A DNA stretch of 64,000 nucleotides from Candidatus Lloydbacteria bacterium RIFCSPHIGHO2_02_FULL_50_18 (lineage in GTDB: Bacteria > Patescibacteriota > Minisyncoccia > Phycocordibacterales > UBA6899). The stretch is from NCBI GenBank assembly GCA_001821395.1, contig MHLM01000001.1, positions 32,001 to 96,000 on the forward strand, given 5' to 3'. Position numbers and translations under genes: made by a program. Below are positions 26,497 to 39,334 of this stretch, piece by piece. Below the pieces are notes generated by a model. It searched no databases, was not told where the DNA came from, and saw only the letters and a list, made by a program, of their open reading frames with translations. Position 1 is the first letter of the stretch, and each line of letters starts with the position of its first letter.

Positions 26497-27135
26497 ATGG
26501 ACGATAAACAACAAACTGGTTCTGACGACCGCACGACGCAAGACTTTCCATTAGGTGGAGGGGTAGATATCGTCGGAAGCGATGACGTTGCCGACGATGT
26601 ACAGATAGAATCATACAATGACGACGTAGACGGAGGCGGAGAAATGACTCCTCGTGATCACATCAAGCTGTTGCGCGAGAAACTGCGCGAGTCGAACGCG
26701 TTAAAACAAGAGTACCTCGACGGATGGCAGCGGCTAAAAGCGGACTGCGTCAATTACAAAAAGCGTGAAGAAGAGGGGAAGGGAGAATTCCTCAAATTCG
26801 CCCGCGAAGGAATCATTACCGACCTGCTTCCGGTGTTAGAGAGTTTTCATATGGCATTTTCGAACAAGGAAGCATGGGGTAAAGTTGACCCCTCCTGGAG
26901 GACTGGCGTTGAGTACATTCACACCCAATTGCTGCAAGTGCTTGCGGGGCACGGCCTCACTCAAGTGGACCCTATCGGTGCCGTATTTGACCCAAATGAG
27001 CATACTTCTATCGGAACGGTGCCGACAGATGATTCGTCGCTTGATCACAAGGTGGCGGAGGTAGCACAGTTGGGGTACCGACTTTCCGGCAAGCTGATCC
27101 GATCTCCAAGAGTGAAAATTTATACCCAAGGATAA
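26497..27135 (+). CDS. grpE: Nucleotide exchange factor GrpE
   Basis: GrpE coiled-coil and beta domain (DYLDGWQRLKADCVNYKKR…ITDLLPVLESF). Confidence 0.9.
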   Translation: MDDKQQTGSDDRTTQDFPLGGGVDIVGSDDVADDVQIESYNDDVDGGGEMTPRDHIKLLREKLRESNALKQEYLDGWQRLKADCVNYKKREEEGKGEFLKFAREGIITDLLPVLESFHMAFSNKEAWGKVDPSWRTGVEYIHTQLLQVLAGHGLTQVDPIGAVFDPNEHTSIGTVPTDDSSLDHKVAEVAQLGYRLSGKLIRSPRVKIYTQG

Positions 27136-27237: not shown

Positions 27238-29127
27238 ATGGCAAAAGTACTCGGAATTGACTTAGGAACGACAAATTCAGCAATGGCGATCGTCGAAGCG
27301 GGAGAGCCGAAGATCGTCGAAAATATCGAAGGTGTACGAACGACGCCGTCTATTGTCGCACTCTCGAAAACAGGGGAGCGCTTGGTCGGTTTGACCGCAA
27401 AACGTCAGGCGGTAACAAATCCTGAGAACACGCTTTATGAGATAAAGCGCTTGATCGGACATAGCTTCGAAGAGGAGTCTGTGCAGCGTGATCAAAAAGT
27501 AGTCCCGTTCAAGATCGAACAGGGAGACAACAATGGTGTAAAGGTAAAGATGGGCGACAAGTCTTTCCGCCCTGAAGAGATCTCTGCAATGGTGCTTTCG
27601 AAATTGAAGGCTGACGCGGAAGCAAAGCTCGGCGAAACGATCACCGATGCCGTCATTACTGTTCCGGCATACTTCAACGATGCACAGCGTCAGGCGACCA
27701 AAGATGCCGGTACGATTGCGGGCTTCAATGTCCTTCGTATCATCAATGAACCCACTGCGGCGGCACTTGCATACGGCTTTGATAAGAAAAAGAACGAGAA
27801 GATCGTTGTGTACGATTTTGGCGGCGGAACGTTCGACGTTTCGGTACTTGAGGTTGGTGACGATGTGATCGAGGTCAAATCGACCGACGGTGATAGTCAC
27901 ATGGGTGGAGGTGATATCGACCAAAAGATCATGGCGTGGATCGTTTCAGAGTTTAAGAAGGAATCCGGGATCGACGTATCAAAAGACATGCTTGCGACAC
28001 AGCGCCTGAAGGAGGCTGCGGAGAAGACGAAACACGAGCTATCAAATATTCCGGAATCAGAGATCAATATCCCGTTCATTACCTCAAACGCCGACGGGCC
28101 AAAGCATTTGTTGCTGAAGATGTCGCGTGCCAAACTCGAAGAACTCGCGATGGAGTATGTCGATCGATCGATCGAGATCACCAAGCGTGCGCTTGATGCG
28201 TCCGGACTCAAGGTGGGGGACATCAATGAGATACTTCTTGTCGGTGGACAGACGCGCATGCCGCTCATGATCGCACGAGTAAAGGAGCTCTTCGGAAAGG
28301 AGCCAAATCGTACGATCAATCCGGACGAAGTCGTCGCTGTTGGCGCAGCGATCCAAGGAGGGATATTGAAGGGTGACGTGAAAGATATACTTTTGCTTGA
28401 TGTCATTCCACTTTCATTCGGAATCGAAACCATGGGTGGCATTGCTACGAAGCTGATCGAACGAAACACAACGATTCCCGCGTCGCGCTCTCAGATATTT
28501 TCAACGGCAGCAGATAATCAAACTTCAGTCGAAGTGCACGTCTACCAAGGTGAGCGCGGAATGGCCGCAGACAATAAGTCGCTTGGCCGGTTCATTCTTG
28601 ATGGTATTCCACCCGCACCGCGCGGAATGCCTCAGGTTGAGGTGACCTTTGACGTGGACGTTAACGGAATTCTCTCAGTGAAGGCTAAAGATAAAACATC
28701 AGGAAAGGAACAATCGATCCGTATCGAAGCACGCTCATCATTGTCCAAAGATGATATCGAACGCATGAAGAAAGAAGCTGAGGTTCATGCTGATGATGAC
28801 AAAAAGAAACAGGAGGCGGTTGAAGTAAAAAATATCGCTGAGACCCTCGTCTACACTGCAGAAAAAGCACTCAAAGATAACGGGGATAAAATTCCCGCTG
28901 ACATTAAGGCTGACGTCGAGGTAAAGATCGCTGAAGTCAAAAATGTCAAAGATGGTACCGATGTGGAGGCGACAAAGAAGGCAACCGAAGAGCTTTCCTC
29001 GCATATGCAGAAGATCGGCGAAGCAATGGCAAAACAAGCCAGTACCACGGAAGGTGCACCGCAGACACCACCGGAGGGCGGCGAGGCGGCGGGAACTGCA
29101 CCCGAAGGCACCGTGCACGACGTCTAG
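27238..29127 (+). CDS. dnaK: Chaperone DnaK (Hsp70)
   Basis: [15 protein letters not shown]…[14 protein letters not shown]… across the full length. Confidence 0.97.
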
Positions 29128-29225
29128 GAGGAAGGAACGGTTAGGGAATAATATCCCTGAAAAGAAAAGTCGGACGCATGTCCGGCTTTTTGTGCTACAA
29201 AAAACGTCAGCATGAATAATATAGC

Positions 29226-29254
29226 TTGTCAAACATCGTCGATATCTGTATAAT
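29226..29254 (+). promoter_or_regulatory. Promoter TTGTCA-17-TATAAT for dnaJ and the downstream operon; near-leaderless
   Basis: The -10 box ends 8 nt before ATG 29263. A weak hairpin plus T-run follows dnaK at about 29170-29195. Confidence 0.65.
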
Positions 29255-29262
29255 GCTCCCGT

Positions 29263-30339
29263 ATGGCAAAAGACTATTACGAAATATTGGGTGTAGGGAA
29301 GACCGCCACGAAGGAAGAGCTGAAAAAGGCTTTTCACAAACTCGCGCATAAATATCATCCCGATAAAGCCGGTGGCAATGAAGCAAAGTTCAAAGAAATG
29401 AACGAGGCATATCAAGTGCTCTCCGACGAGTCAAAACGCAGTCAGTACGATCAGTATGGGAGCGCATCTTTCGATGGCGGAGGCCCACCTCCAGGAAGCG
29501 GATTTAGCGGGCAAGGGTACGGAGGCGGCGGATTCGAGGGGGTTGATCTCGGTGATATCTTCAATGACTTCTTCGGTGCGGGGTTCAACGGAGGTAGCGG
29601 GCAGCGCGTCGAACGCGGTCGGGATATTTCTGTTGATATAGAGATCTCATTTGAAGAAAGTATTTTTGGCACTAAACGCAAAGTGCTTCTCGGTAAAACC
29701 TCAACATGCGACATGTGCCATGGATCGGGCGCAAAACCAGGTACGAAGCTTAAGAAATGCGTAACGTGCAGCGGAAAAGGACGCGTCAATGAATTGCGAA
29801 AATCATTTCTTGGTACGTTCTCTACCGTAACAACCTGCAATGTCTGTAAAGGTATTGGAGAGATTCCCGAGGAGAAGTGTAAGTCATGCTCCGGATTGGG
29901 CGTGGTAAAAAAACAGGAAGAGATCGAGATCAATGTCCCCGTCGGTATCAATGCCGGCGAAATGCTTCGCATGAGCGGAAAGGGTGAGGCGGTCTCACGT
30001 GGAATTGCCGGGGACCTCTACATCAAAGTACACGTGAAGCCGCATGCACTCTATCATCGTGAAGGGAATAATTTGGTGATGGATCTTGATGTGAAACTCT
30101 CGGATGCACTTCTTGGTGCAACATACAAGATCACGGCGCTTGACGGGAAGCAGCTTGATGTGAAAATTCCGGAGGGCGTGAAATTCGGTGACACACTTCG
30201 GCTTAAGGAAAAAGGGATAGCGAATTCCGGCCGCGGCAGAACGGGCGATATTCTCATTCACGTGAACATCAAGACCCCCACCCGCCTTTCAAGTAAAGCA
30301 AAGAAACTCATTGAAGAATTGAAACAAGAGGGGGTATAA
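29263..30339 (+). CDS. dnaJ: Chaperone DnaJ
   Basis: J-domain with HPD, a G/F-rich linker, and four CxxCxGxG zinc-finger repeats. Confidence 0.95.
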   Translation: MAKDYYEILGVGKTATKEELKKAFHKLAHKYHPDKAGGNEAKFKEMNEAYQVLSDESKRSQYDQYGSASFDGGGPPPGSGFSGQGYGGGGFEGVDLGDIFNDFFGAGFNGGSGQRVERGRDISVDIEISFEESIFGTKRKVLLGKTSTCDMCHGSGAKPGTKLKKCVTCSGKGRVNELRKSFLGTFSTVTTCNVCKGIGEIPEEKCKSCSGLGVVKKQEEIEINVPVGINAGEMLRMSGKGEAVSRGIAGDLYIKVHVKPHALYHREGNNLVMDLDVKLSDALLGATYKITALDGKQLDVKIPEGVKFGDTLRLKEKGIANSGRGRTGDILIHVNIKTPTRLSSKAKKLIEELKQEGV

Positions 30340-30357
30340 TTGGTGTCTCTCAGTTGC

Positions 30358-31434
30358 ATGCCCAGAAAGATCATGACTACAAATATTCAAATCCTTCGCG
30401 ACGAAAATCTATCGGTATATCCTGAGTTCGATCAACATCGAAGAGTGGTCCGTTTTGAAGATTCGACATCCGGTCTTGTGGGATTCATTGCTATTCATCG
30501 CGAGCGTGGACCGCTTTCGACGGGCGGAACGCGATATGTGTCATATCCGAATGAGGCAGATGCGATCCGTGATGCCTTACGCCTCTCTCGTGCGATGACC
30601 GCAAAATGTGTCGTATCGGGATTACCCTATGGGGGTGCAAAGGGGGTGATCATGGCAAGACAGGGTGGAATACAGAAATCCAAAGAGCTCCTTGCTGCAT
30701 ACGCCGGCGTCGTTGAATCCTTAGGCGGAGCATTTCGTACGGGTGAAGATGTGGGAATGACCGAGCAAGACGTACAGATCCTGCTTTCCCATTCGAATTT
30801 TTTCAATGGAAAAAGCGATATCGCCGGAGACCCGTCTCCGTTTGCAGCTGAAAGCGTCGCCCTTGTGATGGATCGTATCTCCCAACTGCATCTCGGCGTA
30901 TCGCCCGAAAAGCTTCGCATAGCGGTGAAAGGGATCGGTAAGGTCGGCGGGGCGCTCGTGAAGATTCTTGCCGCTCAGGGTGCGAATGTCAGCATTGCCG
31001 ATGTGAACAAGGATGCGCTAGAGCAGGTCCGAGGTCTCTATCCCGCTATTGCTGAGATCTCTCCGGAAGAGATTGCGTTCACTGATTCAGATATTTATGC
31101 GCCGTGCGCGCTCGGAAATGAGGTGAATGAAGGAACCATCGATCGTTTTCAAGCGAAGATGCTCTGTGGCGGAGCGAATAATCAGCTGGCCGATCCGCGA
31201 TTCGCAAAGATCCTTGAGTCACACAACATCCTATATGTTCCCGATTATCTTGCAAATGCCGGCGGGCTGATCAACGTTTCGGACGAGCTTGAGCCTGACG
31301 GCTATCATCGCAACCGCGTTACGGAACGTATAAACGCGATCGGCACACTCGCCGAAAAGCTCTATCTCTCTTCTCGTAACAATACGCGGACATTCCTCGA
31401 AGAGGTTGAAGAATATGTACGCGCAAATGTATAA
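30358..31434 (+). CDS. Glu/Leu/Phe/Val dehydrogenase-family amino-acid dehydrogenase (leucine/phenylalanine dehydrogenase-like)
   Basis: Catalytic-lysine motif GLPYGGAKGVI and an N-terminal substrate domain (GFIAIHRERGPLSTGGTRYVSY). About 358 aa, like LeuDH/PheDH. It starts 16 nt after the dnaJ stop. Confidence 0.8.
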   Translation: MPRKIMTTNIQILRDENLSVYPEFDQHRRVVRFEDSTSGLVGFIAIHRERGPLSTGGTRYVSYPNEADAIRDALRLSRAMTAKCVVSGLPYGGAKGVIMARQGGIQKSKELLAAYAGVVESLGGAFRTGEDVGMTEQDVQILLSHSNFFNGKSDIAGDPSPFAAESVALVMDRISQLHLGVSPEKLRIAVKGIGKVGGALVKILAAQGANVSIADVNKDALEQVRGLYPAIAEISPEEIAFTDSDIYAPCALGNEVNEGTIDRFQAKMLCGGANNQLADPRFAKILESHNILYVPDYLANAGGLINVSDELEPDGYHRNRVTERINAIGTLAEKLYLSSRNNTRTFLEEVEEYVRANV

Positions 31435-31437
31435 GAG

Positions 31438-32463
31438 ATGAATTTTCATATGGCACAAAAGATGAACACCGCGGAATTCCCCGATCTCGGCACATTGGAA
31501 GAGCAGGTACTGTTTGCATCGCATTATGCCGTTCGCGCTCCATCGACTCACAATTCGCAACCCTGGCTTTTCCGGATCGGGGCTAATACCGTCGAGGTCC
31601 ACGCAGACTGGGCAAAGAAATTACCCTATGGCGACAAGGACGGCAGAGATATGTGCATCAGCGTCGGCGCATGCATTGAACATACAAGGGTGGCATTCTC
31701 ATATTTTGGGATGCTTGAGGGTCTTGTCGTAAATGAAGCGGTCGTGCTTTCGGATAAAAAGCCGATCGCGATATTCATGGTCCATCGCTCGACGGGGACA
31801 GACGAGACATTGCTTCAGACCATATGTGCGATCGAAGGTCGCTTCAACGCACGAGGACCATTCCTCAAAAAAGAGATCCCCCACGCATTGTTACGCGGCA
31901 TTGAGGAGGCGAGCGAGCCGGGTATATCTTTTGCGATACTTACCGAACATGCGGACATAATGAGATTCGCAGACCTTACTGGAGAGGGAATGCGGGTGGC
32001 ACATCGTGTGCCTGAGTTTCGGGGCGAGATCGCAAAGTGGATGATCAATAATTACTCAAAGAAAAAGGAGGGTATACCCGGGTATACGATGCTTGCCCCG
32101 GGACTGCTATCGCTTATTCTTCCCTCACTCATCGGGAGATTCAACCTCGGGGGAGTTCTCTCAAAGCTCAACCATCTTTCCATTGCTTCTTCGTCAGGAG
32201 TGATCATATTTTCCTCTAAAGACTCACCAAGCAGCTGGGTGCATGTGGGGATGCTATTTGCGAGAATGTCGCTTTCACTCAACGTCGAAAACATTCGCAC
32301 CTCGGTCTATGTTGCCTCGATCGAAATGCCCGACATACGCAGTCGGTTAAAGGAGCTCTTGCCGACCGATGAAATGCCACAATTTGCTTGTGCGTTCGGT
32401 TATCCGAAAGTTACCCTGCGCCAATCTCCTCGCCATGAACCTAAGGATCGTATGATACAATAG
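31438..32463 (+). CDS. Nitroreductase-superfamily protein, probably of the Acg-like 340-aa type (putative FMN-dependent oxidoreductase)
   Basis: RAPSTHNSQPWLF motif and a conserved C-terminal region (…FACAFGYPK). It lies 3 nt after the dehydrogenase gene. Confidence 0.7.
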   Translation: MNFHMAQKMNTAEFPDLGTLEEQVLFASHYAVRAPSTHNSQPWLFRIGANTVEVHADWAKKLPYGDKDGRDMCISVGACIEHTRVAFSYFGMLEGLVVNEAVVLSDKKPIAIFMVHRSTGTDETLLQTICAIEGRFNARGPFLKKEIPHALLRGIEEASEPGISFAILTEHADIMRFADLTGEGMRVAHRVPEFRGEIAKWMINNYSKKKEGIPGYTMLAPGLLSLILPSLIGRFNLGGVLSKLNHLSIASSSGVIIFSSKDSPSSWVHVGMLFARMSLSLNVENIRTSVYVASIEMPDIRSRLKELLPTDEMPQFACAFGYPKVTLRQSPRHEPKDRMIQ

Positions 32464-32468
32464 TTACG

Positions 32469-33542
32469 ATGAATTCACTCTCATTCGACAACCGGACATA
32501 TACGCCGATCATCTTTTCAGGCATTGATGCAGGATCTGAATTTTTGCTGTTTCGCACGCAATGGGAAAAGGCGAATGGCGCCCTTATCATCGTTGATGAT
32601 GAAAAAGAACAAGCAAAAGAATACGGATTGCTGAGAGATCCCTCACTACTTAAATCCGGCACCGAGCCGGAGAGCGACTCTACGCTCGAATTTATTTGGA
32701 TCGTCATTCCTTGGAGAAAAACAGCAGTTCGGACACTCGCCAAAGATGCCTACCGATCACTTCGCTCCTCACGCAATCACGATCTGCTCACAAAGGATGA
32801 GGCGAGTATTCTCTCAAAAAAAAGAATAGGCATTGCAGGACTCAACGTCGGCAACCCCGCGGCAATATGCCTTGCACAGGAGGGCATCGGTTCATATTTA
32901 CGCATGGCGGACAATGACACACTTTCTCTTTCGAATCTTAATCGTTTTCGCGCGAGTATCGCAGATCTTGGTGTGAATAAGGCCGTACTTTCAGCTCGTC
33001 AGGCATACGAGATAGATCCTTTTCTCGAGATCGATGTTTGGGAGAACGGCGTAAGTCCTGAGAGCTTGTCCGAGTTCGTTAAGGGCATTGACCTCCTCAT
33101 TGAGGAGATGGACGCACCACCACTGAAGTTGGCGATACGGGAGGAAGCAAAGAGGCAACACGTCCCCACCATTATGATAACCGGCAATGGGCATGATATC
33201 ATCCTCGACATAGAACGTTTTGATACAGATCACGATCTACCACTTCTCTCGGGGAAGCTTACGAACGAAGTAAAGAGGCAGATAGCGCAGGGTCCAAAGA
33301 ACTTCAAAGAAAAGGTTGCGCTCGCTCAAGATTTTATGGGCAAAGAATATCTTTGCGAACGACTGAACTCCTCATTCCAGGAAGTAGGGGAGACGCTCAT
33401 CGGTATTCCCCAACTTGCGGAGGCTTCATTCCTACGCGGTGCCGTTCTCGCTCACGCATGTCGAGGCATCTTGCTCGGTGAGGAGGTCAAGAGCGGGAGG
33501 TATGCGTTCGGTTTGAGCGACCTTTATAATAAGCCCGTGTAA
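32469..33542 (+). CDS. ThiF/MoeB/HesA-family E1-like adenylyltransferase with a roughly 115-aa N-terminal extension
   Basis: Rossmann segment IGIAGLNVGNPAAICLAQEGIG…MADNDTLSLSNLNR. There is no C-terminal CxxC zinc motif. Confidence 0.75.
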   Translation: MNSLSFDNRTYTPIIFSGIDAGSEFLLFRTQWEKANGALIIVDDEKEQAKEYGLLRDPSLLKSGTEPESDSTLEFIWIVIPWRKTAVRTLAKDAYRSLRSSRNHDLLTKDEASILSKKRIGIAGLNVGNPAAICLAQEGIGSYLRMADNDTLSLSNLNRFRASIADLGVNKAVLSARQAYEIDPFLEIDVWENGVSPESLSEFVKGIDLLIEEMDAPPLKLAIREEAKRQHVPTIMITGNGHDIILDIERFDTDHDLPLLSGKLTNEVKRQIAQGPKNFKEKVALAQDFMGKEYLCERLNSSFQEVGETLIGIPQLAEASFLRGAVLAHACRGILLGEEVKSGRYAFGLSDLYNKPV

Positions 33543-33544
33543 AT

Positions 33545-35035
33545 ATGTCTGATTCTTTCAAGGATACTCTCTGTGCGCTTCATAATAGACCCGAGACTGA
33601 GTGGCAGCGACGTGGTGATGCGTTCATGCTGAAACTCTTTCGCGATACCGCAAAGAACGTTCCGGCATATAAAGCATTCTTACGATCACACGGCGTAACC
33701 CCTGGCTCCATCCGAGACATCGCCACATTCAAAAAAGAGATACCGCTCGTAAGTAAGGAGAATTATTTAAAGGTCTACCCGCTCAATGAACTGCTTCCCG
33801 CCGGCGATATCGCAGGTGCACAGATGATATCAACGAGTTCAGGGTCGTCCGGCATACCATTCTATTGGCCGCGCAGCACGCACAACATCGACGAGGCGGC
33901 GCTCATTCACGAACTATTTCTTGTCGACATATTTCACATCAACAAAAAGCGCACGCTTCTTGTGAACACCTTCGCGATGGGCATGTGGGTTGCCGGAACA
34001 ACGACATTTGAATCAGTTTCGCGCATTGCAGATAAATACCGCATAACCATGGTGACGCCGGGCATCGATATGGAGCAGATACTCACTACGATCAATGCAT
34101 TGGGAAAATATTACGAGCAGATCATCATTGCGGGCTATCCTCCCTTTGTAAAAGATATCATTGATATCGGCAAAGAACGCGGGATCAAATGGCAGAAACT
34201 TAATGTACGATTTCTTTTTGCCGCAGAATCATTTAGCGAAGATTGGCGCGAGCATATGCATAAACTGGTCGGCTGCAAGGATCCGTTATCGGGATCGATC
34301 AATATTTACGGCACCGCAGATGCTCTTTTGGTGGCGCACGAAACGCCGCTTTCAATACTCATTCGCAAGCTCGCAACAAAGAGCGGGCGTCTTCACAAGA
34401 AACTCTTCGGCCCCGATCTGCGTATTCCTACATTGGCGCAATGGAATCCCTCGATGCGCTATTTTGAAGAACTTCCGGACGCAAAGATCATTTTCTCCGC
34501 AAACAGCGGTATACCGCTCATTCGTTATGACATTGGGGATACAGGAAATATTCTACACATCAAGGAAACAGCTGACCTTCTTCGATCAGAAGGTGTCGAC
34601 TTAAAACACGAGGCGAAAGTTCACAATATTTCAAGGACGTTGTGGAATTTACCCATATTGACGATCTATGGTCGTGATCGCATGACCGCATCACTCTACG
34701 GTCTCAAAATCTATCCCGAGCACGTGCGTGGTGCACTCGAAGGCAAGACCGGAAGCAAGTATGCAACGGGGCGGTTCGTGATGACCACAAAACTTGATGC
34801 TGACCGGAACCAATACCTTGAGATACATATTGAGCTTCATTCAAAGATACAAAGCAATAAGAAGATCATCGAACATTTGCAGATGATCATGTTGAAACAA
34901 TTACGAGCCGTCAATAGCGAGTTTAAGCGGCTACACGAATCACTTGGTGAGCGTGCAGTACCCAAGATAGTCCTGCATCAAAATCAGACATCATCATTAT
35001 TCAGCCGCAAAGGGAAGCAGGTTTGGAAAGGCTAA
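33545..35035 (+). CDS. PaaK / coenzyme F390 synthetase / CapK-like adenylate-forming enzyme (ANL superfamily)
   Basis: N-terminal PaaK-like region (VPAYKAFLRSHGVTPGSIRDIATFKKEIPLVSKENYLKVYP…ISTSSGSSGIPFYWPRS, a P-loop analogue of SSGTTGKP). 496 aa. Confidence 0.7.
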   Translation: MSDSFKDTLCALHNRPETEWQRRGDAFMLKLFRDTAKNVPAYKAFLRSHGVTPGSIRDIATFKKEIPLVSKENYLKVYPLNELLPAGDIAGAQMISTSSGSSGIPFYWPRSTHNIDEAALIHELFLVDIFHINKKRTLLVNTFAMGMWVAGTTTFESVSRIADKYRITMVTPGIDMEQILTTINALGKYYEQIIIAGYPPFVKDIIDIGKERGIKWQKLNVRFLFAAESFSEDWREHMHKLVGCKDPLSGSINIYGTADALLVAHETPLSILIRKLATKSGRLHKKLFGPDLRIPTLAQWNPSMRYFEELPDAKIIFSANSGIPLIRYDIGDTGNILHIKETADLLRSEGVDLKHEAKVHNISRTLWNLPILTIYGRDRMTASLYGLKIYPEHVRGALEGKTGSKYATGRFVMTTKLDADRNQYLEIHIELHSKIQSNKKIIEHLQMIMLKQLRAVNSEFKRLHESLGERAVPKIVLHQNQTSSLFSRKGKQVWKG

Positions 35036-35044
35036 CGGCAATAC

Positions 35045-36670
35045 ATGTTATCTCTTACCATTGCCATCATCATATTGAACCTTTCTCTCGGACTAGCAAT
35101 TCTCGTCCAATCTAAGAGGGGTGTCGACGCGGGTGTTTTCTTTTTGATCACGCTGGCATTTTCCGCACTTACTATCGCAAATTATCTCTCACTTACCACC
35201 GATCCCAACGTCGCACTGTATTGGGTTCGCGCGGAGATGTTTATCGCCGCATGGCATACGTTCCTCTTCTTTGTCTTTGTCCACGCATTTGCAAAAAGTC
35301 ACTTTGAATATTCTCTCAAACACAGCCTCATCTTTACGGTACCATTCATCATCATCCTGGTGATCTCTGTCTCGCCCTACCTCTTTTCAGCCGTTGCCCT
35401 CAATAAGAACGGGCTCGTAGAGACGATCCCGGGGAATCTTTTCCCCGTCTTTGCCCTCTGGCTTCTGGGAACAATGTTCCTTTCAATGCGGCGTGTCGTC
35501 ATAAATTTCCGGTCAAGTACTGGTACATTGCGCTCGCAGTGGAAATATCTGCTCATTGGTTCGTGCTCGACCTACCTCTTGCTTATTATTTTCAACTTCA
35601 TTTTGGGGGGTTTTCTGCAAAACACAAGATTCCTTGCATACACTCCGATATTCTCCTTGCCTATTCTCTTTGCGACGGCATACGCGATCGTCAAACATAA
35701 CCTTTTTGATATTAAGGTTCTTGCGACTCAGGCATTCGTCACGATCATTTCGATCTTTTACCTCGTGAGAATCGTCGTTGCAACAACAATGACCGATCGC
35801 GTGATCGGCGGAGTGATCTTTGTCACAACGGTATTCTTTGGCTTCCTGCTCATTCGGAGTGTCAAAGAAGAGATTCGAGCGCGTGAAAAGATTGCACTTA
35901 TGGCGAAGAGCCTCACTGATACAAATTGGGAGTTGGCAAAATCGAACGAGCAGCTTCGCATCATCGACAAGCGCAAGAGCGAGTTTGTTTCCATCGTCTC
36001 ACATCAGTTGCGCACCCCGATCACTGCCATGAAGGGCTACTCATCGCTCCTTCTTGAGGATTCCTACGGACCCATCACCGATGCAGTTCGCGCTCCGATA
36101 GAAAAAATATTCGTGTCGTCAAAACGTCTCGCAGAGATGGTGACCGACTTCTTGAACATCTCGAAGATCGAACAAGGAACAATGACCTACACGTTGACCC
36201 CGGTTGATGTTGGTACAATGATCACGGATCTCACCGAAGAATTTATCCCCGTGGCGCGTCTCAAGAACATTAGACTGCAGGCTGATGTTCCGACCAGTGA
36301 GAAGTTCATCGTGAATGCTGACGATGGAAAACTTCGCCAAGTACTGTCAAATCTTATTGATAATTCGATCAAATATACACCGCAAGGCGGAGTAGACATT
36401 TCTGTTGAAACGTTGCTCGAGCGCGACCTTATCCTCATTAAGATCAAAGACACGGGTATCGGGCTTTCCCAAGAGGACATCCACCATCTCTTCGGTAAAT
36501 TTACCCGCGGTTCGGAAGGACAGCGGCACAACACTGATGGATCAGGGCTCGGTCTCTATGTAGCAAAGAAAATGCTCGAAGCACAAGGAGGAAATGTCTG
36601 GGTGGATTCAGAAGGCCCCGGCAAAGGTTCAACGTTCATCATTGAACTCCACAAGGAAGGAGAAAATTAA
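35045..36670 (+). CDS. Sensor histidine kinase with a multi-TM (7TMR-like) N-terminal sensor; no response regulator is adjacent
   Basis: Six to seven TM helices, HisKA (FVSIVSHQLRTPITAMKGY) and HATPase_c (IKDTGIGLS…GSGLGLYVAKK) motifs. Confidence 0.85.
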   Translation: MLSLTIAIIILNLSLGLAILVQSKRGVDAGVFFLITLAFSALTIANYLSLTTDPNVALYWVRAEMFIAAWHTFLFFVFVHAFAKSHFEYSLKHSLIFTVPFIIILVISVSPYLFSAVALNKNGLVETIPGNLFPVFALWLLGTMFLSMRRVVINFRSSTGTLRSQWKYLLIGSCSTYLLLIIFNFILGGFLQNTRFLAYTPIFSLPILFATAYAIVKHNLFDIKVLATQAFVTIISIFYLVRIVVATTMTDRVIGGVIFVTTVFFGFLLIRSVKEEIRAREKIALMAKSLTDTNWELAKSNEQLRIIDKRKSEFVSIVSHQLRTPITAMKGYSSLLLEDSYGPITDAVRAPIEKIFVSSKRLAEMVTDFLNISKIEQGTMTYTLTPVDVGTMITDLTEEFIPVARLKNIRLQADVPTSEKFIVNADDGKLRQVLSNLIDNSIKYTPQGGVDISVETLLERDLILIKIKDTGIGLSQEDIHHLFGKFTRGSEGQRHNTDGSGLGLYVAKKMLEAQGGNVWVDSEGPGKGSTFIIELHKEGEN

Positions 36671-36715: not shown

Positions 36716-37759
36716 ATGAGAAATACTGAGGATCGAGTACTGACGGGGGATAGACCGACCGGAAAGCTTCATTTGGGGCATTTTGCGGGCTCGATACAAA
36801 ATCGACTAAAGATCCAGAACGGTGAGCTCAAGTTCAAAAATCCAATTGAGCAAATTTTCTATATGGTGGCGGACGTGCAGGCACTCACTGACAATGCAGA
36901 CAACCCAGAAAAGGTGCGCTCATCGGTTCTTGAAGTGGCGCTCGACAATCTCGCATGCGGGATGAACCCCAAAAAAACAACGATGTTTATCCAGTCGCAG
37001 GTACCCGAGATTGCCGAACTCACTATTTTTTTTCTCAACCTAGTAACAGTATCTCGCCTCAAGCAAAATCCAACCGTAAAGACAGAGATCAAACAGAAGG
37101 GTTTTGGTGAGAACGTTCCGGCGGGATTTCTTGCATACCCAGTCTCTCAGGCGGCTGATATTCTTACCTTTAAAGCGAATCTCATCCCGGTAGGAGAAGA
37201 TCAGAAGCCAGTCATCGAGCAGGCTAATGAATTGGGTGCTAAATTTAACTCAATGTATGGAGAAACATTTTCTTATATCACCCCGCTGCTACCTCCAAAG
37301 AATTCACCGGAATCTCGCATGCCAGGGATCGATGGCAAGGCAAAGATGTCAAAATCATTGGGGAATGCGATCTTTCTCGCTGATTCGGAAAAAGAGATCG
37401 AACAGAAGGTCATGCAAATGTATACCGACCCGAGCCATATCCATCTCGCAGATCCGGGTGAGGTCAAAGGAAATGTTGTCTTCACCTATCTTGATGTATT
37501 CGATCCAAAGAAAAAGGAGGTTGCGGAGTTAAAAAAACAGTATAAAAAAGGAGGGCTTGGCGACGTCGTGCTGAAAAAACGCCTTGCGGCCGTACTGAAC
37601 GAGATGCTCATGCCCATCCGAGAACGACGTGAGGAGCTTGCACGCAATCCAAAGCATATTATGGACATCCTTGAGGCGGGAACAAAAGAAGCACGTCATA
37701 CCGCAAAAGCTACTCTCGCCGAAGTTCGCGAACATATGAAGATCGATTATTTCGGGTAG
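36716..37759 (+). CDS. trpS: Tryptophanyl-tRNA synthetase
   Basis: HIGH-like motif (GDRPTGKLHLGHFAGS) and KMSKSLGN. 347 aa. Confidence 0.9.
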   Translation: MRNTEDRVLTGDRPTGKLHLGHFAGSIQNRLKIQNGELKFKNPIEQIFYMVADVQALTDNADNPEKVRSSVLEVALDNLACGMNPKKTTMFIQSQVPEIAELTIFFLNLVTVSRLKQNPTVKTEIKQKGFGENVPAGFLAYPVSQAADILTFKANLIPVGEDQKPVIEQANELGAKFNSMYGETFSYITPLLPPKNSPESRMPGIDGKAKMSKSLGNAIFLADSEKEIEQKVMQMYTDPSHIHLADPGEVKGNVVFTYLDVFDPKKKEVAELKKQYKKGGLGDVVLKKRLAAVLNEMLMPIRERREELARNPKHIMDILEAGTKEARHTAKATLAEVREHMKIDYFG

Positions 37760-37939: not shown

Positions 37940-39334
37940 ATGACCACACGAACACTGATAGAAAATTTAAAGGATTCCATCGGGGAAACCGTCACCATTG
38001 CGGGATGGGTCGACATACGACGCGATCATGGCAAGCTCATTTTTATCGATATGCGCGATGCAACGGGAAAGGTGCAGGCAGTAGCGCTTCCGAACCATAT
38101 CGAGGCACATGAAGCTGCGAACATGCTTCGTCCCGAATGGGTAGTCGAGATAGAGGGAAAGGTGAATGCGCGACCTGAAAAAATGGTCAAAAAGGACGAA
38201 CTAAACGGAATGCTTGAAATCGAGATAGTTTCGGTCAAAGTGCTCAATAAGTCTGAGACACCGCCGATCGACGTACGCGGGGACGGCCGCGATATCGGAG
38301 AAGAGGTGCGACTCAAATATCGTTATCTCGACCTTCGTCGCCCCAGGCTCCAGCAGAATTTACGTTTGCGACACAAGATCGTACTGTTCATCCGAAATTT
38401 TCTTTCGAACAATGGATTCATTGAGATTGAAACCCCGCTTCTTTCTAAATCAACGCCGGAAGGATCACGCGACTTTCTTGTTCCCTCACGACTCGAGCAG
38501 GGGAAGTTTTACGCGTTACCCCAGTCACCGCAGCAATACAAGCAGCTCCTTATGGTTGCGGGATTTGAGAGGTATTTCCAATTTGCGCGTTGTATGCGCG
38601 ATGAAGATACACGAGGAGACCGCCAACCCGAATTTACTCAACTCGATATGGAGTTGAGCTTCGTCGATCGTGAGGATGTCATGGCCTTGAACGAACAACT
38701 ACTTATCGAGCTCGTGCAAAAGACTGCCCCCCACAAGAAGATCCAGCAGATCCCATTTCCTCGTATGACCTACGCCGAGGCGATGAAGAACTATGGGAAC
38801 GACAAGCCGGATATCCGTACCGACAAAAATGACCCCGACCTGCTCGCATTCTGTTGGGTAATTGATTTTCCTTTCTTCGAAAAAGCCGATAAGGGAGGAT
38901 GGACGTTCACACACAATCCATTCTCAGCCGCAAAAGAAGAACATCGCGAATGGTTAATGAACAAAGAACATATCGAGGAGATCTTAACGACGCAGTATGA
39001 TGTTGCCCTAAACGGTTTTGAGATCGGCGGAGGCAGTATCCGCAATCATGACCCCAAGGCGCTTAGTTGTGTATTTGAGATCATGGGGCATAAAGAAGAG
39101 GACATTAAAGCAAATTTCGGGCACATGCTTGACGCTTTTTCCTACGGAGCACCCCCACACGGCGGTATCGCATGGGGACTCGACCGTCTCATGGCAATCC
39201 TCCAGAATGAACCGAACATTCGCGAGGTGATCGCATTTGCCAAGACCGGAGAAGGGAAGGACCTCATGATGGCCGCACCGTCAGACGTTTCACCCGAACA
39301 GCTTGTCGAGTTAGGTATACATATTGTGAAGTGA
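37940..39334 (+). CDS. aspS: Aspartyl-tRNA synthetase lacking the GAD insertion domain
   Basis: Bacterial-type motif 2 (LPQSPQQYKQLLMVAGFERYFQFARCMRDEDTRGDRQPEFTQLD). …KPDIRTD… runs directly into FCWVIDFPFFE with no GAD insert. 464 aa. Confidence 0.9.
   Translation: MTTRTLIENLKDSIGETVTIAGWVDIRRDHGKLIFIDMRDATGKVQAVALPNHIEAHEAANMLRPEWVVEIEGKVNARPEKMVKKDELNGMLEIEIVSVKVLNKSETPPIDVRGDGRDIGEEVRLKYRYLDLRRPRLQQNLRLRHKIVLFIRNFLSNNGFIEIETPLLSKSTPEGSRDFLVPSRLEQGKFYALPQSPQQYKQLLMVAGFERYFQFARCMRDEDTRGDRQPEFTQLDMELSFVDREDVMALNEQLLIELVQKTAPHKKIQQIPFPRMTYAEAMKNYGNDKPDIRTDKNDPDLLAFCWVIDFPFFEKADKGGWTFTHNPFSAAKEEHREWLMNKEHIEEILTTQYDVALNGFEIGGGSIRNHDPKALSCVFEIMGHKEEDIKANFGHMLDAFSYGAPPHGGIAWGLDRLMAILQNEPNIREVIAFAKTGEGKDLMMAAPSDVSPEQLVELGIHIVK

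Follow-up and report, generated by a model that had tools for sequence, protein, structure and literature searches.

We examined a 64,000-nucleotide stretch of the genome of Candidatus Lloydbacteria bacterium RIFCSPHIGHO2_02_FULL_50_18 (contig MHLM01000001.1, positions 32,001 to 96,000; hereafter the window, numbered from its first letter), in which five closely spaced genes, here called g1 to g5, follow dnaJ on the forward strand. The first four encode enzymes and the fifth a sensor histidine kinase. Relatives of these genes recur together across Patescibacteria, and from their synteny, spacing, and fusions we are highly confident that g1–g4 act in one pathway. Our preferred reading, to which we give roughly even odds (about 0.5), is that they form a single small-molecule pathway around a split oxazolone-synthetase-type pair.

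The cluster begins with g1 (30340–31434), which encodes a Leu/Phe/Trp-type NAD(P) amino-acid dehydrogenase (ELFV) with a pocket resembling that of phenylalanine dehydrogenases. It continues with g2 (31438–32463), an Acg-type flavin mononucleotide (FMN) oxidase/oxidoreductase of the nitroreductase fold (FDO); g3 (32469–33542), a ThiF-like protein predicted to be an ATP-dependent cyclase; g4 (33545–35035), a PaaK-fold adenylate-forming enzyme from a small, distinct family; and, as the last gene, g5 (35045–36670), a HisKA_7TM sensor histidine kinase. The gaps from dnaJ through g5 are 0, 3, 5, 2, and 9 nucleotides if g1 starts at TTG 30340; the alternative starts are GTG 30343 and ATG 30358, the latter giving a first gap of 18 nucleotides. 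A strong Shine-Dalgarno-like run, GAGGGGG (30327–30334), lies ahead of the g1 start, and there is no terminator-like site between dnaJ and trpS. An initial annotation, made from the sequence alone, had described five tightly spaced genes behind dnaJ, assigned them to these families, and proposed a dedicated, non-housekeeping pathway. The open reading frames (ORFs), the gaps of 0 to 9 nucleotides, and the missing terminator agree with that layout; all of the family calls hold in profile, PDB, and fold searches; and the idea of a dedicated pathway is borne out by the synteny, operon spacing, and Rosetta-stone fusions described below.

The g3/g2 pair ties the cluster to a known type of chemistry. 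Oxazolone synthetases, characterized between 2021 and 2025, cyclize N-acyl amino acids in an ATP-dependent reaction and desaturate them in an O2-dependent one. Rv1355c (TrzS) is a fusion of a ThiF cyclase and an FDO that converts N-acyl-tryptophan to tryptazolone with ATP and O2, TyzB/TyzC is the unfused form, and OxzB of Pseudoalteromonas rubra, the first example, is also a fusion (PMC12856293; PMC10404671; bioRxiv 10.1101/2020.06.11.147165). A single NCBIfam model of 722 positions, PRK07877 ('Rv1355c family protein'), takes both g3 and g2 collinearly: residues 36–351 of g3 align to model positions 33–337 with 271 bits, the next-best ThiF family reaching 68 bits, and g2 aligns to positions 381–552. 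The ThiF domain of g3 (residues 106–235) follows an N-terminal extension of about 105 amino acids, and g3 is 34% identical to an annotated Rv1355c-family protein over its full length, extension included. The closest solved folds to g3, namely AclA (PDB 9egb, Tenacibaculum discolor), which is the nearest, MoeB, PaaA, TcdA, and MccB, cover only the ThiF core, which indicates that the extension is not the peptide clamp of MccB or PaaA.

We compared both proteins with bona fide Rv1355c-family members taken from Mycobacterium and Rhodococcus plasmids. Whether the sequences come from mycobacteria, Rhodococcus, Streptomyces, or Patescibacteria, the Asp of the ThiF adenylation motif, Asp215 in g3 (in LIEEMD), does not vary. 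The NLNR motif of g3 is invariant as well. By alignment, Asp215 would be equivalent to D217 of the Mycobacterium smegmatis enzyme TrzS-Msmeg, of which the D217A variant is cyclase-dead. g2 retains the FDO motifs of Rv1355c-family proteins, including APSTHNSQPW (APSxxNxQPW), RFNAR (RxxxR), and SPR, together with R186 and R195; these two arginines are candidate FMN-site residues, although which arginine matches R540 is not certain. Against the Acg-family model NF047509, g2 scores 189.5 bits, just under the cut-off of 199. Elsewhere in Patescibacteria the two halves occur as one protein, and two such ThiF-FDO fusions are collinear on PRK07877 with 377 and 382 bits (L017 and L009). Judged by sequence, then, g3 and g2 are a split version of the Rv1355c/TrzS ThiF-FDO fusion. 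On a Streptomyces plasmid, a GNAT-family gene comes directly after an Rv1355c-like ThiF half (L083:3878-5652), and no FDO is annotated in the vicinity; this may represent a saturated-oxazolone or other variant.

To determine how widely the gene set is conserved, we fetched 80 loci encoding the PaaK-like protein from species-representative genomes by way of an alignment of g4 relatives. We annotated them using BLAST, hidden Markov models built from the loci themselves, Pfam, and NCBIfam. A ThiF homologue was found in 63 of the 80 loci, hereafter the module loci, and in 54 of these it directly adjoins the PaaK-like gene on the same strand. An FDO is present in 56 of the 63 module loci and a HisKA_7TM kinase, within 7 kb, in 57, so the gene set of the window does recur. 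The median gap between module enzyme genes is 1.5 nucleotides, and gene order differs between lineages, which points to selection on the linkage rather than to inherited synteny. The records carrying the module are titled Saccharibacteria, Paceibacterota/Parcubacteria, Magasanikbacteria, Gottesmanbacteria, Roizmanbacteria, Doudnabacteria, and others, and have five to seven module genes. The proteins are publicly annotated as 'hypothetical', 'ThiF family adenylyltransferase', or 'phenylacetate-CoA ligase'.

Most of the 17 loci that lack ThiF are of a different kind. Fourteen have titles that are not Patescibacteria-like (actinomycetes, Chloroflexia, Methylococcaceae, Sorangium, and others), and among these an FDO beside the gene was found in none and a kinase in one (L077). 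That leaves three Patescibacteria-like loci, of which L004 and L052 are short contigs and L055 has its ThiF just beyond the 7 kb span. Four actinomycete loci from metagenome-assembled genomes (MAGs; L025, L037, L042, L060) have the PaaK-like gene flanked by PNPOx-like and beta-lactamase-family genes, without ThiF, FDO, or kinase; this is another conserved setting of the ligase family. Eight MAGs titled 'uncultured Gammaproteobacteria bacterium' (L006, L009, L019, L028, L029, L032, L059, L064) carry a Patescibacteria-type module with neighbors like those of the candidate phyla radiation (CPR) and are probably mislabelled; one of the MAGs with this title and the module, OZ246401.1, is a 938 kb 'chromosome'.

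Every module enzyme is fused to another somewhere. Besides the TrzS-like ThiF-FDO proteins (L009, L017, L032), the loci contain fusions of dehydrogenase to FDO (L016), ThiF to an alpha/beta-hydrolase (L008, L016), and FDO to the hydrolase (L021, L027, L054). The relatives of g4 include PaaK-ThiF (P0251), ThiF-PaaK (P0279), dehydrogenase-PaaK (P0339), and dehydrogenase-PaaK-ThiF (P0330) proteins. The hydrolase, which resembles enol-lactonases and meta-cleavage-product hydrolases, occurs in 14 loci, alone or fused to ThiF or FDO; we looked for it in the window and did not find it. Synteny, tight spacing, and Rosetta-stone fusions together thus argue that g1–g4 constitute one dedicated pathway, and synteny and fusions rule out a set of unrelated housekeeping genes. 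A further family, 'c16' (about 305 amino acids; L030:13662-14576, L034, L041, L047, L049, L061, L070), lies between the FDO and the kinase in seven loci, has only a faint methyltransferase match, never occurs together with the alpha/beta-hydrolase, and was not found in the window.

The first gene of the cluster suggests what kind of substrate the pathway may handle. The best PDB match of g1 is leucine dehydrogenase (LeuDH) 8hpe (E = 1.5e-60). It scores 240 bits against the ScyB tryptophan dehydrogenase model, below the equivalog cut-off of 600, and this search assigns it no specificity. Both ELFV domains are present, and residues matching the catalytic K68, K80, D115, and N262 are in place. 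In the pocket, g1 has Gly135 at the position of LeuDH A113 and Leu310 at that of V291; among the module dehydrogenases the Gly is found in 21 of 21 and the Leu in 17 of 23. We take this Gly/Leu pair to separate phenylalanine dehydrogenases from leucine dehydrogenases. Such a pocket hints that the substrate is aromatic or bulky, in keeping with the tyr-, phen-, and tryptazolones already known.

Among the 63 module loci, 23 have a dehydrogenase and 20 have a class I aminotransferase, but none has both, and in a Yanofskybacteria lineage a class IV aminotransferase gene overlaps the FDO gene instead; neither aminotransferase class was found in the window. The pattern across the loci is one of non-orthologous displacement among enzymes that interconvert an amino acid and its 2-oxo acid, and it implies that this step belongs to the pathway. 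We considered whether the class I enzyme could be a CqsA-like alpha-oxoamine synthase and rejected this, since NCBIfam places these proteins among aspartate/aromatic (AspAT-like) aminotransferases.

The fourth enzyme could not be placed by Pfam, which gave no match to g4. Its similarity to TIGR02155 (PaaK) is 33.8 bits (1e-8; cut-off 646), and to PDB 4r1l 1.8e-5. Its AlphaFold2 model (mean predicted local distance difference test score 88.6) has a clearly PaaK-type two-domain ANL fold, with a Foldseek E-value of 1e-21 to PaaK1 and TM-scores of up to 0.65 normalized to the query and 0.73 normalized to the target. The top Foldseek matches are PaaK1/2, BT_0428, 2-hydroxyisobutyryl-CoA ligase (HCL), and ClxA, followed by the amide bond synthetase McbA. 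g4 has in common with these enzymes the predicted fold and adenylation motifs, seen as SSGSSG, YGTAD, RYDIGD, and the C-terminal GKQVWKG. It differs from the solved PaaK-type structures in being about 60 amino acids longer, only 14–18% identical, and part of a distinct family of about 550 representative clusters.

When 1.84 billion representative proteins were searched exhaustively, 554 g4 relatives came back at E ≤ 1e-30. A protein of Candidatus Lloydbacteria bacterium RIFCSPHIGHO2_01_FULL is 100% identical to g4. Among the best 120 relatives of a Saccharimonadales PaaK-like protein there was no name of a cultivated strain, the named sources all being metagenomic or MAGs. Going partly by the titles of their PDB entries, we take ClxA and McbA to couple an acyl-adenylate to a nucleophile without CoA. 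By analogy with them, we propose that g4 may be an ATP-dependent acyl-adenylate/amide ligase.

The most conserved non-enzyme partner of the module is the kinase. In 53 of the 63 module loci it lies downstream of the enzymes on the same strand, as part of one unbroken run of genes; the median gap to the kinase is 4.5 nucleotides. g5 has an N-terminal HisKA_7TM domain (1.6e-9) followed by HisKA and HATPase_c. Two forms exist: a short one like g5, with similarity to g5 spanning the 7TM region in 38 of the 67 kinase matches across loci, and a long one with the same 7TM domain plus a GAF domain. Single-domain receivers are found near the module in 23 loci. The pairing of kinase and enzymes suggests either product sensing, as in a synthase-receptor pair, or regulation of the operon. 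In Yanofskybacteria (L084/L003), about 2.7 kb downstream of the kinase, there is a single-domain receiver and after it a receiver fused to a T2SSE/PilB-type ATPase, a hint that two-component signaling close to the module could bear on type IV pilus function.

The module resembles the oxazolone systems OxzAB of P. rubra, TyzACB, and TrzAS (Rv1356c/Rv1355c) of Mycobacterium tuberculosis and its relatives in combining a ThiF-like cyclase with an Acg-type FMN oxidase, and both the split (TyzB/TyzC-like) and fused (TrzS/OxzB-like) arrangements occur in the Patescibacteria clade. It differs in that a PaaK-fold ligase, a dehydrogenase or aminotransferase, often an alpha/beta-hydrolase, and a 7TM histidine kinase stand in place of the N-acyltransferase, and in that its hosts are Patescibacteria rather than Actinomycetota and Pseudomonadota. 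The ThiF/nitroreductase pair is also shared with clusters for N-acyl dehydrotyrosines, in which an N-acyl amino acid synthase accompanies it and the isolated end products (stieleriacines, thalassotalic and kyonggic acids) are ring-opened N-acyl dehydroamino acids (PMC12479983). Those clusters rely on NasY-type synthases and fatty acyl donors, whereas no such synthase was found for the module. By comparison with them, a ring-opened N-acyl dehydroamino acid is a plausible end product here too, especially where the hydrolase is fused.

The initial annotation had suggested that this gene combination was undescribed. The ThiF plus nitroreductase-fold pair is known, so that part does not stand; the literature we searched held nothing linking the pair to Patescibacteria, a PaaK-like ligase, an amino-acid dehydrogenase or aminotransferase, or a 7TM kinase, and the full combination appears new in that respect. 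Its further idea, heterocyclization and oxidation by an E1-like enzyme and a flavin dehydrogenase without YcaO, came close, but the relatives act on small N-acyl amino acids rather than on peptides or nucleotides.

From these comparisons we infer a scheme; its substrates, amide formation by g4, the sequence of reactions, the product, and the kinase ligand are all part of the inference. The dehydrogenase, or elsewhere the aminotransferase, would interconvert an amino acid, either bulky or aromatic, and the corresponding 2-oxo acid, or supply the amino acid. The PaaK-fold enzyme would adenylate a carboxylic acid, most simply an amino-acid-derived oxo or aryl acid, and join it to an amino acid, so that an N-acyl amino acid would form with no acyl-CoA N-acyltransferase involved. 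After ATP-dependent cyclization by the ThiF-like protein, the FMN oxidase would desaturate the Cα/Cβ bond with O2. In relatives, opening or transfer of the azlactone by the alpha/beta-hydrolase would then yield an N-acyl dehydroamino acid. The co-operonic 7TM histidine kinase would sense the hydrophobic product or control the pathway. To our knowledge, Patescibacteria generally lack fatty-acid synthesis and beta-oxidation, and hence an acyl-CoA pool. By analogy with the oxazolone clusters, the PaaK-like ligase and the dehydrogenase or aminotransferase probably replace an acyl-CoA N-acyltransferase front end.

Several points weigh against an oxazolone-type pathway. Similarity searches with a candidate TrzA and with a GNAT protein beside actinomycete homologues detected no N-acyl amino acid synthase, either in the window or in the 80 loci, and the recurrent neighbor families include no acyltransferase family, with 'c16' remaining unannotated. 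CoA-independent amide formation by g4 would rest on analogy. The ThiF-FDO fusions (377–382 bits) fall under the NCBIfam Rv1355c equivalog cut-off of 476, and the sub-cut-off scores of these fusions and of g2 mean that the clade could have a different substrate class. Neither dehydrogenase nor aminotransferase was found in 20 of the 63 module loci and no FDO was detected in 7, some of these loci being truncated. No response regulator or receiver was found in the window, so that g5 is locally the orphan it was first called, though its presence is not incidental given the 57 module loci with such a kinase; the kinase link could also be regulatory instead of sensory. Desaturation requires O2, yet many Patescibacteria inhabit anoxic groundwater. 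No product or activity has been established for any member of the clade.

A bolder version of the oxazolone-type pathway, which we consider rather unlikely, is that the module is a self-contained chemical signaling system, widespread in Patescibacteria, in which the four or five enzymes make an azlactone or N-acyl dehydroamino acid from an amino acid without lipid or acyl-CoA input and the 7TM kinase is the receptor. Pairs of a signal synthase and a membrane histidine-kinase receptor are familiar from LuxM/LuxN and CqsA/CqsS. As in these pairs, a polytopic membrane histidine kinase is encoded next to genes for what would be a small, hydrophobic molecule derived from an amino acid or acyl group. 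The module is unlike them in having no sequence relationship to them, in that its cognate response regulator often lies far from the locus or is missing from it, and in being known from genes alone. Were the module such a system, it would provide an autoinducer-like or symbiont-host signal for ultra-small, host-dependent bacteria.

The same enzyme types would also fit a cyclodipeptide route, in which g4 makes a dipeptide, g3 activates the dipeptide's C-terminus for ring closure by the free N-terminal amine to a 2,5-diketopiperazine, and g2 acts like the nitroreductase-fold cyclic dipeptide oxidase AlbA to give a dehydro-diketopiperazine. An adenylating ligase, a ThiF-type carboxylate activator, and a nitroreductase-family desaturase are all in place, the dehydrogenase or aminotransferase would provide the amino acid, and AlbA itself is cited as a nitroreductase-family amino-acid desaturase in the OxzB paper. 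We nevertheless find this route improbable: g2 falls in the Acg/FDO subgroup instead of an AlbA-like family, we saw no AlbB-like partner, and g3 is nearest the oxazolone cyclase domain (271 bits, versus at most 68 bits for other ThiF families).

Catabolism or salvage is no more persuasive. Here an amino acid would be deaminated and the resulting aryl or oxo acid activated by g4 as a CoA ligase, with ThiF and FDO unrelated or accessory. In catabolism it is normal for a dehydrogenase or aminotransferase to precede an aryl-acid ligase, and the solved structures nearest to g4 are phenylacetate-CoA and 2-hydroxyisobutyryl-CoA ligases. g4 is nonetheless remote from PaaK in sequence (34 bits against a cut-off of 646), and its fusions to ThiF in several genomes tie it to the cyclase and not to a CoA pathway. 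No other paa genes lie near the PaaK-like gene, and the recurrent neighbors include neither these nor beta-oxidation genes.

We regard as very improbable the modification of a peptide or peptidyl-nucleotide of the MccB, PaaA, or McbBC type, which the initial annotation had entertained by analogy. An E1-like enzyme with an FMN dehydrogenase does recall azole-forming systems of ribosomally synthesized and post-translationally modified peptides (RiPPs). The cluster leaves no intergenic room for a precursor and has no conserved small ORF; YcaO and a RiPP recognition element protein are absent; and the g3 extension, which does not superpose on the MccB/PaaA clamp, is common to the small-molecule TrzS-type cyclases. 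TcdA, the tRNA t6A cyclodehydratase, and MccB/PaaA share with g3 the ThiF core, ATP-dependent carboxylate activation, and intramolecular cyclization, but they act on macromolecules, and g3 is without their accessory domains and context.

Finally, it is extremely improbable that g3 activates a sulfur carrier (ThiS/MoaD) or makes a tRNA ct6A-type modification with the other genes unrelated: its best PDB sequence matches are TcdA and ThiF, but its scores fall far below the cut-offs for TcdA (33 versus 304 bits), ThiF (62 versus 159), and MoeB (38 versus 266), it lacks a CxxC zinc motif, the fusions to FDO, PaaK-like, dehydrogenase, and hydrolase proteins favor small-molecule chemistry, and the only GG-terminal ORFs in the window, in a search for a ThiS/MoaD-like gene, are three implausible ones in alternative frames or overlapping genes.

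The position of the cluster behind dnaJ has a narrower meaning than was first supposed. In the window, grpE (26497–27135) and dnaK (27238–29127) precede dnaJ (29263–30339), all on the forward strand. The dnaJ call is supported by TIGR02349 (389.5 bits; cut-off 377.2) and by DnaJ, DnaJ_CXXCXGXG, and DnaJ_C domains. A hairpin with a T-run lies 3' of dnaK (about 29161–29195) and is followed by a near-consensus promoter-like site 5' of dnaJ (TTGTCA-17-TATAAT, 29226–29254, forward strand, 11 of 12 consensus matches), whose first position is also where the span given in the initial annotation begins. From these two features dnaJ appears transcriptionally detached from grpE-dnaK and joined to the module, possibly as the first gene of the transcript, with this site as the candidate operon promoter. 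g1–g5 are therefore likely, judging from the sequence, to be co-transcribed with dnaJ. A second promoter-like site (TTGAAG-18-TATAAT, 30311–30340, forward strand) lies inside the 3' end of dnaJ, ahead of g1, so that use of the dnaJ promoter by the module, as the initial annotation assumed, is plausible and a start of its own is possible. Both sites are putative, being consensus matches alone.

In the wider set, grpE-dnaK-dnaJ is found upstream of the module in the window and in just 3 of the 63 module loci: a close relative (L005), a genome titled 'Patescibacteria group bacterium UBA3533' (L063), and a Taylorbacteria genome (L075). We therefore rejected dnaJ as a conserved member of the module. 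The heat-shock association is a local, lineage-specific feature outside the conserved system, and the proposed stress-coupled expression is weakly grounded because the dnaJ linkage is limited to few lineages. In two of these loci the dehydrogenase is replaced by small ORFs without a Pfam match, between dnaJ and the PaaK-like gene (L063:9168-9701, 177 amino acids; L075:9246-9908, 98 and 118 amino acids).

Downstream of g5 in the window lie trpS (36716–37759) and aspS (37940–39334), also on the forward strand. Binned at 2 kb across the whole window, GC skew starts out positive, falls to near zero at about 32 kb, and turns negative past about 48 kb. The cumulative skew therefore reaches its maximum within the window, possibly the sign of a replication landmark.

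The genomes of Patescibacteria (CPR) are tiny, and these bacteria are regarded as having almost no capacity for biosynthesis or signaling; most of their conserved lineage-specific genes are without an assigned function. Our results suggest that those with the module probably make, and perhaps sense, an amino-acid-derived small molecule. The comparison ties the module to a biochemically characterized reaction type, oxazolone/azlactone formation, and would extend this chemistry to a new phylum-level group, with a front end independent of acyl-CoA. For organisms that are hard to culture, it offers a concrete, expressible candidate for a small-molecule product and a possible sensor. The conserved pairing of synthase and kinase makes the signaling hypothesis directly testable.

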